Part shown: positions 17,244 through 64,000 of the stretch, piece after piece | Layout: every line of letters starts with the position of its first letter | How positions within the stretch are numbered: the stretch's first letter is position 1 | Sequence record: MZ417521 | Reading direction: 5' to 3' (one strand) | Source of the DNA: Escherichia phage 132 | DNA: 64,000 bases | Program-made: the position numbers and the translations under genes | The notes under the pieces: generated by a model | Seen by the model: only the letters and a program-made list of their open reading frames with translations | Database searches by the model: none | What the model was told of the DNA's origin: nothing

Positions 17244-17408
17244 TTACTCTTCTTTTTCTTTAGATTCCTCTTTTTTCTTTTTAGGAATCTGTTCAGGACC
17301 TTTATTTACTACAGCGCCTGACGTTGTTCCAGTAGAGATATTTTCAGGATTACCACCTGAATCTCCAGCGACCATATCTTCTTTAATAAATTCTTTATAT
17401 GTTTTCAT
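17244..17408 (-). CDS. small protein with internal-protein-like N-terminus (MKTYKEFIKED...), 54 aa; below the ORF-track cutoff
   Basis: ATG at 17406-17408 preceded by AGAGGT; first 9 residues match the capsid-targeting sequence of T4 internal proteins; hand-translated. Confidence 0.4.
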   Translation of the reverse strand: MKTYKEFIKEDMVAGDSGGNPENISTGTTSGAVVNKGPEQIPKKKKEESKEKEE

Positions 17409-58866: not shown

Positions 58867-59404
58867 TTACTATTTCCAAAAGTTTATTATTTTTAAGGTA
58901 ATTAGCCTTTTCTAGGACTTCAGAAGCATATTTAGAACCTGCTTTAACATTCCATCCCGAATTATAAGAGGATATTGCTTTTCTTATATCGCCCTTATGT
59001 ATATTTAACCAATAAGAAAGTTCAATGTACGCCCAGGAAGCTGAATTGGACCGTTTATTCAACATTCTTTTTATTTCAGCATCAGTCATATTATAACCAA
59101 GTTCCTTAACTCTTGCTCGCATAGTAGGCAAATAATTTTGGAACATTCCATAAGCGTGATGCTTTGGTTTAGATTTTAAATTAACTCCGCCAGAGCTTTC
59201 TTGCCATAAAATGGCTGCCATTATATGACCCAATCCACTCTTGTGGATATTTTTGTGTGTTTTATATTTTCCATCCTTAGAAAATTGTTCCCCGAATTGA
59301 TACGCGTAACGCATGTTATCGAGTTGGACATTACTGAAAGTATGCTCGGAGCTATGTGCCATCATTGAAATGGCCAATAGACCAGCGAGTAGTGCTTTTC
59401 TCAT
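58859..59404 (-). CDS. secreted soluble lytic transglycosylase-like protein, 181 aa
   Basis: signal peptide; SLT-family motifs (ILWQESSGG, GMFQ, YNSG). Confidence 0.65.
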   Translation of the reverse strand: MRKALLAGLLAISMMAHSSEHTFSNVQLDNMRYAYQFGEQFSKDGKYKTHKNIHKSGLGHIMAAILWQESSGGVNLKSKPKHHAYGMFQNYLPTMRARVKELGYNMTDAEIKRMLNKRSNSASWAYIELSYWLNIHKGDIRKAISSYNSGWNVKAGSKYASEVLEKANYLKNNKLLEIVND

Positions 59405-59411
59405 GCTTACC

Positions 59412-59873
59412 TCATTGAGTTTTAATTACTGCTTTAGAAGCCTTTCCTGGTAAACGACGACTGTTGATAATTGCCATCCTGCATTGAAGTGACGGGTTTT
59501 TGAACTTCTCATTAGGCTTACAAACTGTAAATCCAAGCCAAAGATTTCCATCTGTGATTTCTAAACGCCCAGGACGATATTCAACACCATCAATAAAATC
59601 CTCGTCAATGTCAGGACGCGGAGGCATACTCAGGAATTCATTAACTTCTAAAACATGGTCTTTTATTTTATGGAATAATTCAAAAACATATGTCTCATCA
59701 ATCTCCCGTTGAATTGCGCGATCAAGAAGATGCTGAGAATATTTTAGATGAAACGATGAGACCCCTGCTGCTTTTGATGCCTCACGAATCTCATTGTTAA
59801 TTTGACGAAACTCCGACTCAAAGTGACGACGAAGCTTATTTCGACGGATAAAAACTTCTGTATTGATAGTCAT
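59412..59873 (-). CDS. regB: endoribonuclease RegB, 153 aa
   Basis: T4 RegB length and N-terminus; ATG preceded by AGGAG and an early promoter. Confidence 0.8.
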   Translation of the reverse strand: MTINTEVFIRRNKLRRHFESEFRQINNEIREASKAAGVSSFHLKYSQHLLDRAIQREIDETYVFELFHKIKDHVLEVNEFLSMPPRPDIDEDFIDGVEYRPGRLEITDGNLWLGFTVCKPNEKFKNPSLQCRMAIINSRRLPGKASKAVIKTQ

Positions 59874-59900
59874 GTTATTCTCCTCTTAACTGATAGAAAA

Positions 59901-59930
59901 ATTATACCACAGTCAAGAGGAAAAGTAAAC
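59901..59930 (-). promoter_or_regulatory. T4-type early promoter upstream of regB
   Basis: gtaaac 59925-59930, attata 59901-59906 on plus strand. Confidence 0.55.
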
Positions 59931-59932
59931 AG

Positions 59933-60211
59933 TTATTCTTTAAATCTAATCAATTTATTCATAGACTTTGAAACTTCTGCACGAACCTCATGCAGATTTT
60001 TGAGCTGTTCAAGACGCTGCGTATAGTAAGCAATTTCATCTTCTTCGAGACAGTCCTGTGAATCTTCTTTAAGATAACGTGCATAGTCCTGAAAAGCGTT
60101 ACGAACTACTTCCTGGAAATCATCAAGACTTTGAATTTTCTTAGGAGCAGCAGATACACGACGAGGGGCAGTATAATACTCATAACCAAACCCTGCGCTT
60201 AATTGAGCCAT
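59933..60211 (-). CDS. small hypothetical protein, about 92 aa
   Basis: track start is GTG; ATG at 60209-60211 preceded by GAGGA. Confidence 0.4.
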
Positions 60212-60477
60212 TAGTATTTTTCCTCTGGTTGGAACACTGCACGACAAGCCCACATACTGGCTTCTTTGAGTTTCGCTTTAGCAATAGTTAACTGATCGAG
60301 GCTTTCAGCATAATTCTTCGCGAATTCACAGTCTTCGCAATTATCTAGTGCTTCCCAAAATTCATCATATAAAGCGTCAAAGATAAGTCCTAAACGAACT
60401 TCAGCGTCTTTAATAGCATTTACTTTACCGATTTTTTCGTCGGTATGTGGCTTATAACCTTTAATATCTTCAATCAT
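60211..60477 (-). CDS. small acidic protein, about 88 aa, at the relative position of T4 vs.4
   Basis: ATG at 60475-60477 with GAGGAAG 6 nt upstream; sequence not recognised. Confidence 0.4.
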
Positions 60478-60691
60478 ATTTGACTTCCTCACCAGTGCAT
60501 AAATCATATTCAACTAAACGAATAGGTTCATGAATGCCATATCCTTGAACAGAAATTTCTGTAGTAGGATAAATTCCATTAATATCACCCATGTTCCATG
60601 CTTCGTTAAATTGCTGTTCGCCTGAATTACTAAACCATTCGGCGAAAGCATTTAGCACATCTTCAGAACCTTCAATAATTATCTTTGCCAT
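60470..60691 (-). CDS. small acidic hypothetical protein, 73 aa
   Basis: ATG ORF. Confidence 0.45.
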   Translation of the reverse strand: MAKIIIEGSEDVLNAFAEWFSNSGEQQFNEAWNMGDINGIYPTTEISVQGYGIHEPIRLVEYDLCTGEEVKYD

Positions 60692-61053
60692 TACAAACTC
60701 TCGGTAAAGGTACGAGCGATAACGTCGCGCTGCTGTTCCGGAGTCAGAGAGTTAAAGCGAACTGCATAACCGGATACACGGATGGTCAGCTGCGGATATT
60801 TTTCCGGATGCTTAACTGCATCTTCCAGAGTTTCACGACGCAGAACGTTAACGTTCAGGTGTTGACCACCTTCAATTTTAACTGTAGGCTGTGGCTCAAT
60901 TTCAATTTCACGGGCATGCAAACCATAGAAAATTTCTGGGTCTACAAAAGAGTCCTCTTTAAAGGTTTTAGAAACGATAATTCGTGCTTGAATACCATCT
61001 TCAAAATAAATAGTACCTTTATGTGTGCCTTCAAGAATTTGATATGCTTTCAT
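60691..61053 (-). CDS. autonomous glycyl radical cofactor (GrcA/YfiD-like), 120 aa
   Basis: C-terminal glycyl radical motif [25 protein letters not shown], as at the C-terminus of pyruvate formate-lyase and E. coli GrcA. Confidence 0.7.
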
Positions 61054-61060
61054 ATAAACC

Positions 61061-61441
61061 TCAATTAGAAAATAAATTTATCCAAGATTGTTCTTTAATT
61101 AAAAACGGCTCAGAATCATATGCCATTAAACTTTGGGTAATTAATCCTTTAAAAGGTCCATCAATAAATTCCATGGTAAAATATGGAATTTTATTCATTA
61201 ATCTTGCATTAGGAGCAGTGCACAAAACTCTGCATCCTTTGAATACGCCTTTTTGTAATTTGTATTGCTTAGGATAAAATTCGCTCAAGACGTTGTTATT
61301 TGCCAAAATTTCAAAATGATTCACCAATTTATTTTTAATAGTTTTTGGCGAAAAATAAAGATATTCGAAAAGTTGCGTATCTGTCATCATTGCATCCCAA
61401 TTACGAAAAACTGTGGACGAGTAATACCACCAATGCAACAT
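61061..61441 (-). CDS. hypothetical protein, up to 126 aa (start uncertain)
   Basis: ATG ORF overlapping the upstream gene by 55 nt; alternative ATG at 61388-61390. Confidence 0.4.
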
Positions 61442-61926
61442 TTACTATTGCAGCAGTAATGTACAGTGTCAATATGGACACTATAAATTTTATCCATATC
61501 AGGAGCTTTAACAGGCTCATCAATTATATACAAAATTCGCGAAAGCAATAAACCCCTGAACTTGCTTCCTTTATTGCCAATAAAACTACGGACAGAATCA
61601 GTAAATAAGCGGAATCGAATATCATCGCTAGAATAACGAGAAAATTCTTTTTTAATGTGGCCTGCAGAAATTTTAGCATAAGCTGAAGTATTAGAAAGAA
61701 CAATAACTGTTCCACCGTCATACAGCCAATTAACAGCAAAATTAGTTACTGCGGTCGATTTACCTGATTGTCTGCCACCGTCTAAACGAAGTGTACAATA
61801 CTGCTTGAGTACGTCTTCAAATGGTGGGGCATAACCGTTCTTACAAATTTCTTCTACTCTAGCATCAGAATGGTGTGTAAAAGCATTCATCAGGGATAGA
61901 TAAGGACCAGTTAAAAATGTTCTCAT
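61387..61926 (-). CDS. P-loop NTPase-like protein, about 179 aa
   Basis: Walker A-like GGRQSGKST and Walker B-like ILYIIDEP; track start is GTG, ATG at 61924-61926 chosen. Confidence 0.4.
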   Translation of the reverse strand: MRTFLTGPYLSLMNAFTHHSDARVEEICKNGYAPPFEDVLKQYCTLRLDGGRQSGKSTAVTNFAVNWLYDGGTVIVLSNTSAYAKISAGHIKKEFSRYSSDDIRFRLFTDSVRSFIGNKGSKFRGLLLSRILYIIDEPVKAPDMDKIYSVHIDTVHYCCNSKCCIGGITRPQFFVIGMQ

Positions 61927-62006
61927 TTTATTCTCTCTAAGTTTGGGCCATTCCATGGCGCATGAATTGTCCATTTCTGTATTTACCACTCCAAGTAATT
62001 ATGAAT

Positions 62007-62036
62007 ATACTATCACAATTCTAGGAGAAAGTAAAC
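62007..62036 (-). promoter_or_regulatory. possible early promoter (weak -10 TAGTAT)
   Basis: gtaaac 62031-62036; -10 candidate 62007-62012. Confidence 0.3.
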
Positions 62037-62038
62037 TG

Positions 62039-62341
62039 TTATTTACCTTTAATTACTTTAGCTGCTTCGATAGCCGCTTGCTGAAGGTCATCCATAGACA
62101 TACCGAATTTAGAAGCAAAGTTATCAATTTTCTTTTCGACAGCATTCAAAGGCTTGGCCTGTTTACCTTCATTAGCGCCAGGAAGAGCGAGAATACGCTC
62201 TTTGTCAATATAAAGGCTTACAAGTTTCTTACGGTCTTTATCGGACAAATCGTGAAATGAATGAGCCTTTTTATTTATAGCGGCTTCTAATTTACCTGCA
62301 CTCACTCGCGCTTCAGTAATAAATTCTTGATATGTTTTCAT
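62039..62341 (-). CDS. ipII: internal protein II with capsid-targeting sequence, 100 aa
   Basis: N-terminus MKTYQEFITEA matches the T4 internal-protein capsid-targeting sequence; T4 IPII length. Confidence 0.65.
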   Translation of the reverse strand: MKTYQEFITEARVSAGKLEAAINKKAHSFHDLSDKDRKKLVSLYIDKERILALPGANEGKQAKPLNAVEKKIDNFASKFGMSMDDLQQAAIEAAKVIKGK

Positions 62342-62362
62342 ATGTTTCCTTTAAATGTAAAT

Positions 62363-62377
62363 AGGCCGTATAGGCCT
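62363..62377 (-). terminator. short GC hairpin (aggcc-GUAUA-ggccu) between ipIII and ipII
   Basis: aggccgtataggcct palindrome at 62363-62377. Confidence 0.3.
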
Positions 62378-62379
62378 TA

Positions 62380-62958
62380 TTAATTACCACGGGCTGCATT
62401 AGCAACGGCGTAAGCGTACTGAACATTAGCGTCTTTAAACGTACCTTTAGAGGTGTCTATTTCTGCCTTAAAGCCGCCTTTAGCCATAACATCGGCAAAT
62501 TCTTTACGGAAAGCCATTGCATCAAGACCTTTCCATGATGATTTATGCTTGGCAAATTCAAGACCAGCGTAGTTGACAGCTTTAGCCAATTTATTATCAA
62601 TGACCCATTTACCAGCTTTAGGCACAAACACCGGGCCTTTCTGTTTAGAGAATAGTTTTAAATTCCAGCGACGAAGGTCACCGTCGGCTTTAACAAAAGC
62701 TGCGTCTAAGTTACTAGCAACAACATCTTCAATATGAGCAAATTTAAGCCCATCAACTTCAATATTTAGATCGTTACGCCAGCGTAGTCCTTCCCAAGCG
62801 AAGGCTTTAAAATCAGAAGCTTTTGTGGCTAGATATCGTTCAAGTGGAGCAGTTTTAGGATCAAAGCCGTTTCCGCCACGATAATTCCACTCGTCCTTAT
62901 TAATGCCTTGGACTTTTCCTGCAAAGGCCTCGGCGATAAATTCTTTATATGTTTTCAT
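62380..62958 (-). CDS. ipIII: internal protein III with capsid-targeting sequence, 192 aa
   Basis: N-terminus MKTYKEFIAEA; size close to T4 IPIII. Confidence 0.65.
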   Translation of the reverse strand: MKTYKEFIAEAFAGKVQGINKDEWNYRGGNGFDPKTAPLERYLATKASDFKAFAWEGLRWRNDLNIEVDGLKFAHIEDVVASNLDAAFVKADGDLRRWNLKLFSKQKGPVFVPKAGKWVIDNKLAKAVNYAGLEFAKHKSSWKGLDAMAFRKEFADVMAKGGFKAEIDTSKGTFKDANVQYAYAVANAARGN

Positions 62959-63022
62959 TTTTTGTTTCCTTGTTTGTTTTGATAGAGTAATTATACCATA
63001 TTAATACTTAAGCGTAAACAAT

Positions 63023-63283
63023 TTAAGCTTTACCGCCAGAAATAATTCCGAAGTTGTTAAAATCGTATTCAATATCGTCAACATCTACTTTAGGACTTGC
63101 TACGACATAAGCAATTTCACTACGTTTTGCATAGGTGTTGATTTCTTTACCATCGCCACCTAAGAAAGAATACCCATTACGTTTTAATGAGCCAAAGTCT
63201 TCCGCATCACCAATGAAAGCTTTAACTTTAAATTTTGGACCTTTGGCATCTGCTTCAATGATAAATTCTTGGTACATTTTCAT
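63023..63283 (-). CDS. additional internal-protein-like protein with capsid-targeting sequence, 86 aa
   Basis: N-terminus MKMYQEFIIEA; third member of the tandem IP cluster. Confidence 0.55.
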   Translation of the reverse strand: MKMYQEFIIEADAKGPKFKVKAFIGDAEDFGSLKRNGYSFLGGDGKEINTYAKRSEIAYVVASPKVDVDDIEYDFNNFGIISGGKA

Positions 63284-63289
63284 TTTTCC

Positions 63290-63703
63290 TTAGTAAATTG
63301 ATTTACCATAGTATTTGTACCAAGTCGGGCGCTGAGCAATTTTTTCATCTAAGCGAGCTTGACTTATCGCAATGGACGCTTCGGACGGGACATAATTATT
63401 ACGAAATTCGACAGGGATGTCGGAAATATCCTGGACAGTCGTGTCCTTGATTTTGAAACCACGTTTCAAGCATTCAGCGATTAGCTCGATTTGACGTAAA
63501 CGTAAAAATTCGAGTTTGTCGTAAAAGAATGTTACGTGACCTGTGCCTAAGATAAATGTTGGAGAGATTTTAAAATCCTTTACACGTTTACCGTTTTGAA
63601 CATGTTTACGGACTGCACCAAATACGCGTGGTAATTCACGATACTCAGCCATAAGATGTTGGTCGGTCAGTTCAGAAACAAGTGTTAAATTGATACGAGT
63701 CAT
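63290..63703 (-). CDS. denV: endonuclease V (pyrimidine dimer DNA glycosylase), 137 aa
   Basis: start set to ATG 63701-63703 (GGAGG 5 nt upstream); product matches recalled T4 EndoV ([34 protein letters not shown]...). Confidence 0.93.
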
Positions 63704-63730
63704 AATTTCCTCCAAGTAGTTGATGAATGT

Positions 63731-63760
63731 ATAGTATCAAAGTCCTTGGAGGAAGTAAAC
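63731..63760 (-). promoter_or_regulatory. T4-type early promoter (-10 TACTAT) upstream of denV
   Basis: gtaaac 63755-63760, atagta 63731-63736 on plus strand. Confidence 0.5.
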
Positions 63761-63761
63761 A

Positions 63762-64000
63762 CTATTTTTCTGAAGCGCCTGAGATATATTTTTCAAGACG
63801 TTGTTTCATTAGCGAGCCGTTCTTAGCGATTTCTTCTGGTTTATCGCACATACGCAACAAGGCTTCAAGCTTAACGATATCGCTGGTACGTTCAAATTTG
63901 CGAGTATCTATCTTACTAGCAAGTTCAGAAATACGTGCTAATAGACTTTCAGCTTCAACCAAAGCTGCACCTAGCTTAGTTGCAAATGTGTCAGTAGCTT
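63762..64000 (-). CDS. 3' portion of a gene whose start lies beyond the window end
   Basis: reading frame stays open to position 64000 with no in-frame ATG inside the window; track start is TTG. Confidence 0.35.
   Translation of the reverse strand, partial: ATDTFATKLGAALVEAESLLARISELASKIDTRKFERTSDIVKLEALLRMCDKPEEIAKNGSLMKQRLEKYISGASEK

Follow-up and report, generated by a model that had tools for sequence, protein, structure and literature searches.

We analysed a 64,000-nucleotide stretch of Escherichia phage 132 (sequence record MZ417521), hereafter the window, in which three adjacent minus-strand genes encode proteins bearing the N-terminal capsid targeting sequence (CTS) of T-even internal proteins (IPs). 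Their open reading frames (ORFs) lie at 63283..63023 (86 aa), 62958..62380 (192 aa) and 62341..62039 (100 aa), and the encoded proteins begin MKMYQEFIIEA (MKMYQEFIIEADAKG...), MKTYKEFIAEA (MKTYKEFIAEAFAG...) and MKTYQEFITEA (MKTYQEFITEARVS...), respectively. The region is typical of the e-to-vs.8 IP cassette array of T4-like phages. Two of the genes are orthologues of T4 ipII and ipIII; the third encodes an 86-aa protein that we predict to be a packaged, injected anti-defence effector, with a probability of roughly 0.55.

An earlier note on this DNA had placed three adjacent tag-bearing genes here and taken their N-termini for the T-even CTS. Both observations hold, and the exact ORFs are found in the ORF list. 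Scanning all 64 kb in six frames with the pattern M[KR]x[YF]x[ED]F[ILVM] returned only the three IP ORFs and one further ORF at 17408..17244. At the DNA level, the 5' ends of the three IP genes form a three-copy, 37-nt direct-repeat family (D1) whose members are 78-100% identical. Given the specificity of the scan and this repeat family, the shared-tag pattern is real and not due to chance. The note's cluster of three is present, but the array really has four members with denV interleaved. A fourth tag-bearing gene lies upstream of denV (63703..63290) and runs off the window end, with residues 16-93 encoded at 64000..63762; its match, mogra_153 / RB69 ORF127c, starts MKTYNEFLSE. denV thus sits between the fourth IP gene and the 86-aa gene. 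The features of the locus, all on the minus strand, are as follows.

63762..64000 (-): fourth internal-protein gene, 3' part (codons 16-93), RB69 ORF127c / mogra_153 type, start beyond the window end; the frame-2 translation matches mogra_153 (MKTYNEFLSESILNEATDTFATK...) and phrog_3499, 'internal head protein' (E 1e-46)
63730..63760 (-): T4-type early promoter upstream of denV, GTTTAC-N17-GATACTAT
63290..63703 (-): denV (endonuclease V, pyrimidine-dimer glycosylase), RB69-type allele; Pfam PF03013 (E 3.6e-14), phrog_1183
63023..63283 (-): 86-aa internal protein, RB69 ORF125c family, CTS MKMYQEFIIE; PHROG 2667 (phrog_2667), 'internal head protein' (E 3.6e-21)
62990..63018 (-): early promoter in the 86-aa/ipIII intergenic region, TTTACG-N17-TATAAT, TG-extended; RB69-type sequence by alignment
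62930..62958 (-): ipIII CTS codons holding a recombination junction, from blastn segment boundaries and a three-way alignment
62380..62958 (-): ipIII (Ip3 orthologue, 192 aa); 91% aa identity to T4 IPIII, phrog_5341 (E 2.5e-117)
62363..62377 (-): short GC-rich stem-loop between ipIII and ipII, AGGCC-TATAC-GGCCT
62039..62341 (-): ipII (Ip2 orthologue, 100 aa); 94% aa identity to T4 IPII over 86 aa, phrog_7857 (E 4.5e-55)
62006..62036 (-): early promoter upstream of the vs.8 homologue, at the downstream edge of the cassette array; repeat partner of the denV promoter
61387-61989 (-): vs.8 homologue downstream of ipII; weak P-loop and terminase-N-like matches

The two larger genes proved to be true orthologues of the T4 genes to which the earlier note had matched them in size. 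By BLAST, the 192-aa protein is identical to T4 IPIII at 174 of 192 residues (91%; E 2e-131), and its phrog_5341 match covers residues 1-192 of 192. The 100-aa protein shares 81 of 86 residues with T4 IPII (94%; E 4e-61), its last 14 residues lying outside the BLAST alignment, and its phrog_7857 match covers residues 1-100 of 100. In this locus ipII has no promoter of its own. The one exact copy of TATAAATA, the T4 late-promoter consensus, near these genes lies inside the ipII coding sequence (62272-62279, minus strand), 62 nt past the start; the 64-kb window holds three exact matches, fewer than the 10.7 expected by chance. The T4 counterparts of these genes have established functions. GmrSD-family type IV restriction enzymes attack sugar-modified cytosine DNA, and T4 Ip1, Ip2 and Ip3 each inhibit one GmrSD variant (PMC12373910). 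Ip2 and Ip3 block two different ones, as inhibitors of GmrSD-ECOR21/BrxU and GmrSD-ECOR17 (PMC12373910; PMC9391042), and IPIII is required for T4 plating on ECOR17 and is active from the cytoplasm without its targeting sequence (PMC9391042).

The 86-aa protein has the 10-residue CTS of T4 IPII and IPIII almost exactly and is encoded in the same gene array, yet its mature part is unrelated to theirs: the PHROG matches overlap at residues 1-25 only, and size, charge and predicted fold differ. Past the tag it has nothing in common with IPII, IPIII or T4 IPI, as the earlier note had remarked. No characterized internal protein is identical to it. Compared with the T-even IP repertoire, it differs from the T4 IPs and belongs to the family of its nearest named relative, the uncharacterized RB69 ORF125c (95% identical, annotated 'hypothetical'). 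The note had also called it an extra member. T4 indeed has no copy of the gene, but the protein is one of a recurrent, database-annotated family rather than a one-off divergent member. Searching with tblastn located homologues in about 217 phage records, about 163 of which carry copies of at least 80% identity, nearly all full length. Homologues are known from Tequatrovirus (SP1, and UFV13, where the gene is split into two ORFs; L011 2178-2430), Mosigvirus (RB69, mogra and phi25-307), Gaprivervirus (VR7 ORF127c, 74% identity) and Gelderlandvirus (CGG4-1, 66% identity).

A paralogue subfamily of 97-101 aa and about 40% identity occupies the other IP locus, the ipI locus beside 57B. In VR7 the paralogue (ORF154c) lies between ip9 and ip6, and others are found in STP4-a (STP4a_129) and Morganella phage MP1 (gp136). 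In the paralogues the CTS is followed by about 12 additional residues, which may include a second cleavage site. We compared gene order in the window, SP1, mogra, phi25-307, RB69, JS09, UFV13, VR7, CGG4-1, STP4-a and MP1, and all family members examined lie in one of two IP loci, either between denV and vs.8 or next to 57B. RB69 ORF125c, VR7 ORF127c and ORF154c, STP4a_129 and MP1 gp136 make up the protein's own family, with the same predicted fold.

Outside this family the protein has few echoes. When the mature domain was searched exhaustively with phmmer against 1.84 billion representative proteins, essentially nothing beyond family members was retrieved; Pfam and NCBIfam gave no match for the 86-aa protein, and a PDB sequence search returned chance matches only. 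We regarded one borderline relative, the WG-repeat protein P0015 (E 1e-4), as fortuitous and boosted by its repeats; the Pfam model WG_beta_rep misses the 86-aa protein. In records whose annotators gave the adjacent genes the names Ip4, Ip6, Ip7, Ip9 and Ip10, members of this family are simply 'similar to RB69 ORF125c', so it seems to be an unnamed IP family, in a comparison that leaves Ip5, Ip8 and Ip11-13 of Repoila et al. 1994 outside. No mention of ORF125c turned up in our literature search. Like Ip4-Ip13, the named polymorphic internal proteins of T-even phages (Repoila et al. 1994, cited from PMC12373910 and PMC4122927), the family is CTS-tagged, cassette-like and shuffled between phages; the functions of those proteins are mostly unknown.

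Pairwise dN/dS (the ratio of nonsynonymous to synonymous substitution rates) across Mosigvirus, Gaprivervirus and Gelderlandvirus copies is 0.09-0.42, including comparisons with dS >1. These low values identify the 86-aa ORF as a real gene under purifying selection. They also bear on whether the gene is decaying towards loss and no longer functions in the window phage. Damaged forms are common enough to raise the question. In JS09, the loss of 144 nt between GTCCAAAA and GTCCTAAA repeats has left a 38-aa in-frame remnant (L009 1501-1617), a form frequent enough to have its own PHROG, 35655 (phrog_35655). Further damaged forms (P0005, P0007, P0009 and P0010), the split UFV13 gene and a metagenomic ORF (P0013) in which the N-terminal part of denV is joined to the C-terminal end of the 86-aa protein add to the list. 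However, the window copy is intact, nearly all of the copies of at least 80% identity counted above are full length, dN/dS stays well below 1 even between genera, and some of the truncated forms are probably sequencing or assembly errors in short metagenomic contigs. We therefore consider a remnant without function very unlikely. A variable, dispensable gene is as expected for an accessory effector. As a separate observation, the 90%-identity protein cluster containing the exact 86-aa sequence has 475 members, among them 137-aa denV proteins; fusion ORFs have probably chained the denV and 86-aa proteins into one cluster.

Several features of the leader point to packaging. Mutagenesis of IPIII attributes capsid targeting mainly to residues 4 and 7, and processing to residues 8 and 10 (summarized in PMC9026906). 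The 86-aa protein holds all four determinants: Y4, F7, I8 and E10. In a 10-sequence family alignment, F7 and E10 do not vary in either subfamily, and the window-type subfamily always has Y4 and I8; the paralogues carry conservative replacements, with F or L at position 4 in two and L at position 8 in three. I8-I9-E10, followed by Ala, is the sole I/L-x-E motif in the protein, and cleavage by the gp21 prohead protease after E10 is predicted to yield a mature form of 76 aa and 8.2 kDa with an isoelectric point (pI) of 5.3.

The arrangement of the gene nevertheless raises the possibility of an early cytoplasmic protein, transcribed together with denV, that is never packaged, with a relic CTS-like leader spread by cassette recombination. 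The 86-aa gene starts 6 nt after the denV stop codon and lacks its own promoter. Early promoters of the T4 type stand before denV, ipIII and vs.8, those of denV and vs.8 being direct repeats that bracket the array (81% identity over 31 nt; D3), and no TATAAATA late promoter lies upstream of the 86-aa gene. The CTS codons are, moreover, demonstrably a site of recombination, as described below. A defective tag could also arise through the choice of start codon. Two in-frame ATGs are present, Met1 and Met3 (63277-63283, minus strand; L001 4127-4381), the GG of the ribosome-binding site stands 4 nt and 10 nt from them, and many gene callers pick the 84-aa form. Yet T4 ipI, ipII and ipIII likewise have early promoters and no TATAAATA upstream, so the missing late promoter is uninformative. 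Met3 is due to T3M, a change confined to the RB69-type allele; in other genera the orthologues begin with MKTY and have only one start codon there. All four functional positions of the CTS have been kept over distances of dS >1, and a homologue is present in virions. An unpackaged protein is, on this evidence, unlikely.

The virion evidence comes from Morganella phage MP1. Its gp136 starts MKTFQEFINE|A and, with the leader removed, aligns to the family profile with an hhalign probability of 98% (E 1.8e-13); it also matches the 86-aa structural model in Foldseek (E 1.6e-6). Oliveira et al. detected gp136 in purified virions by electrospray ionization tandem mass spectrometry (ESI-MS/MS), where 6 unique peptides covered 59% of it (PMC5384007 Table 1). 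These data favour packaging and concern the paralogue subfamily; they are supportive but not conclusive, since the virion list includes non-structural proteins. Together with the intact tag, they suggest that the 86-aa protein is likely to be packaged.

We modelled the 86-aa protein with AlphaFold2. A 5-sequence alignment gave an unusable model (predicted local distance difference test, pLDDT, 45); adding the paralogue subfamily to make a 10-sequence alignment raised the pLDDT to 82, with a predicted template modelling score (pTM) of 0.70. The model shows a helix over the leader, followed by a beta-alpha-beta-beta-alpha-beta (ferredoxin-like) domain. Foldseek found no match below E 0.3 in the PDB, and in BFVD it found family members only, including MP1 gp136. 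The structure of T4 IPI* (2JUB), present in the searched library, was not among the matches listed, and no similarity of the mature domain to IPI* was found. As these searches gave no informative match, we take the predicted ferredoxin-like fold to be generic and to offer no functional assignment.

Among known proteins, a close counterpart is T4 IPI/IPI* (Ip1; PDB 2JUB), which is injected and inhibits the GmrSD type IV restriction enzyme found in E. coli CT596. Both proteins are small, with a mature form of 76 aa (predicted for ours), and in both an N-terminal propeptide whose last residue is Glu is, or would be, removed by gp21. Both are non-essential and encoded in a hypervariable T-even IP locus, and delivery with the DNA is presumed for both. 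Unlike IPI*, the 86-aa protein has a predicted acidic ferredoxin-like domain, and no sequence likeness extends beyond the tag.

Packaging need not imply an effector role. The protein could be a filler or structural component that serves core assembly, charge balance or DNA packing, as was classically assumed for IPII and IPIII; an intact CTS and cleavage site, a homologue in virions and the lack of similarity to any inhibitor found would all fit. Charge speaks against part of this proposal. The mature 86-aa product has a pI of 5.3 and a net charge of about -1, unlike the basic mature IPI*, IPII and IPIII (pI 9.0-9.7), and neutralization of DNA charge is therefore unlikely. Nor would one expect of such a component a compact, conserved domain under purifying selection that many related phages nonetheless lack. 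Furthermore, all three T4 IPs, once thought structural, proved to be inhibitors. We judge an inert packaged role improbable, and slightly favour an anti-defence role for the 86-aa protein.

Several points weigh against the reading as an injected effector carried in the head. In many database records the annotated form is the 84-aa (Met3) one, and use of that start would make the CTS 2 residues shorter. The gene has been deleted or frameshifted repeatedly in nature. Evident contaminants, dNMP kinase and exonuclease A among them, also figure in the MP1 virion list (PMC5384007). Lastly, Silas et al. screened ip4-10 against 15 GmrSD groups and obtained no new inhibitor pairs (PMC12373910), from which it follows that not every IP has an easily found GmrSD target.

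If the injected-effector reading is correct, the 86-aa protein would be made from the denV early transcript, and its CTS leader would dock it onto the prohead scaffolding core, by analogy with T4 IPIII. Trimming by gp21 after Glu10, at the I-x-E motif, would leave a mature 76-aa, mildly acidic, ferredoxin-like protein to be ejected into the cell with the DNA. There it would at once bind, and stoichiometrically inhibit, a first-response defence of the host. Because the three characterized T4 IPs all target GmrSD variants and the DNA of the window phage very likely contains glucosylated hydroxymethylcytosine, the most probable target would be another GmrSD or other type IV restriction variant; assignment to the GmrSD family specifically is doubtful. 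The protein is a candidate inhibitor only, made more plausible by the demonstration that Ip2 and Ip3 inhibit type IV restriction (PMC12373910).

Another possibility is that the ORF125c family is a new injected anti-defence family with a non-GmrSD target. Weak structural matches of the 86-aa domain are repeatedly to protease prodomains and inhibitors, and for this reason the target may be a protease-linked defence or a nuclease defence other than type IV. In this alternative, spread over Tequatrovirus, Mosigvirus, Gaprivervirus, Gelderlandvirus and Gualtarvirus suggests an action independent of DNA sugar modification. We consider a non-GmrSD target rather unlikely.

Injected internal proteins act before phage gene expression and contribute to determining which hosts T4-like phages, therapeutic candidates among them, can infect. 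With all three T4 IPs now paired with type IV restriction enzymes, the many orphan families are the obvious next place to seek inhibitor-defence pairs. The 86-aa family would be a good test case, being widespread, compact and confidently modelled, with a homologue in virions.

The locus also records how such cargo moves between phages. Between 20 and 45 kb, long queries from the window are 96-97% identical to KIT06 and RB3, including alpha-glucosyltransferase, and the best match of 52-64 kb is vB_EcoM_SP1, with identical gene order. Judged by these matches, the backbone is Tequatrovirus. An assignment to Mosigvirus, drawn from the best local matches, was rejected once longer queries pointed to the Tequatrovirus backbone. 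Across the locus, nucleotide matches to T4 and RB69 divide as follows.

59133-61987, vs. genes: T4 95.5%; RB69 about 82% (60373-61964)
62006-62363, ipII: T4 93.9%; RB69 leader codons only
62368-62971, ipIII: T4 89.6%; RB69 leader codons only
62930-64000, ipIII leader codons, promoter, 86-aa gene, denV and fourth IP gene: T4 denV only, 78%; RB69 97.4%

The window denV DNA is accordingly 97% identical to that of RB69 and only 78% identical to that of T4. A three-way alignment places the switch point within the first ~30 nt of ipIII, in the CTS codons. Upstream of the junction the sequence is that of the RB69 ORF125c-ORF124c intergenic region, and downstream it is the body of T4 ipIII, where RB69 continues into an Ip10-like gene. 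From these alignments, the locus at 59133-64000 is an inter-genus mosaic with a crossover inside the ipIII CTS codons. Unlike in RB69, the window copy of the 86-aa gene thus lies in a Tequatrovirus backbone beside T4-type ipIII and ipII, not Ip10-type genes. Cassette content differs in each relative examined.

T4: e - ipIII - ipII - denV - vs.8
RB69: denV - 125c - 124c - 123c - vs.8
JS09: denV - 38-aa remnant - Ip10 - ipII - denV fragment
phi25-307: an added Ip10-like gene
VR7: denV - ip10 - 127c - ip7
CGG4-1: denV - Ip4-like - homologue of the 86-aa gene

Shuffling of IP genes, and exchange mediated by promoter-stem-loop (PeSL) elements, is a long-standing idea (Repoila 1994, as discussed in PMC4122927). 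The promoter repeats and the junction fit it, and the array would have been diversified by recombination in the shared CTS codons and the repeated early promoters. The junction inside the tag codons is a concrete and clean example of cargo swapping between phage genera. Published work or databases already cover the class of protein, its tag, the gene and the notion of shuffling, so what is gained here is one more candidate, without a new principle. The array is a typical set of T-even IP cassettes, two characterized inhibitors and one member of a recurrent annotated family, and the latter is a reasonable candidate rather than a surprise.

Ip10-like, CTS-tagged genes are inserted in the same array of other phages (L002 3073-3387; L010 2825-3495; L002 1681-2058). 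Their PHROG, phrog_3966, is labelled 'unknown function' despite the leader and takes in RB69 ORF123c and ORF124c and phi25-307 gp082 and gp085. At the downstream edge of the array, the vs.8 homologue (61387-61989) has weak matches to phrog_2 (E 6e-6), AAA_14 and Terminase_6N. The phage SP1 record calls it 'large terminase subunit', probably the wrong label for an uncharacterized P-loop protein.

The remaining ORF from the tag scan (17244-17408, minus strand) encodes a 54-aa orthologue of T4 gp61.1. Our literature search found nothing linking gp61.1 with capsid targeting. The window protein begins MKTYKEFIKE|D, a CTS-like leader with Y4, F7, I8 and E10, and continues into a low-complexity tail rich in lysine and glutamate; T4 gp61.1 itself starts MKTFKEFIKE. 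The gene lies beside gene 61 and adjoins the 'anti-TA island' of 61.2 (adfA), 61.4 (tifA) and dmd. From its leader, gp61.1 could be an unrecognized packaged peptide.

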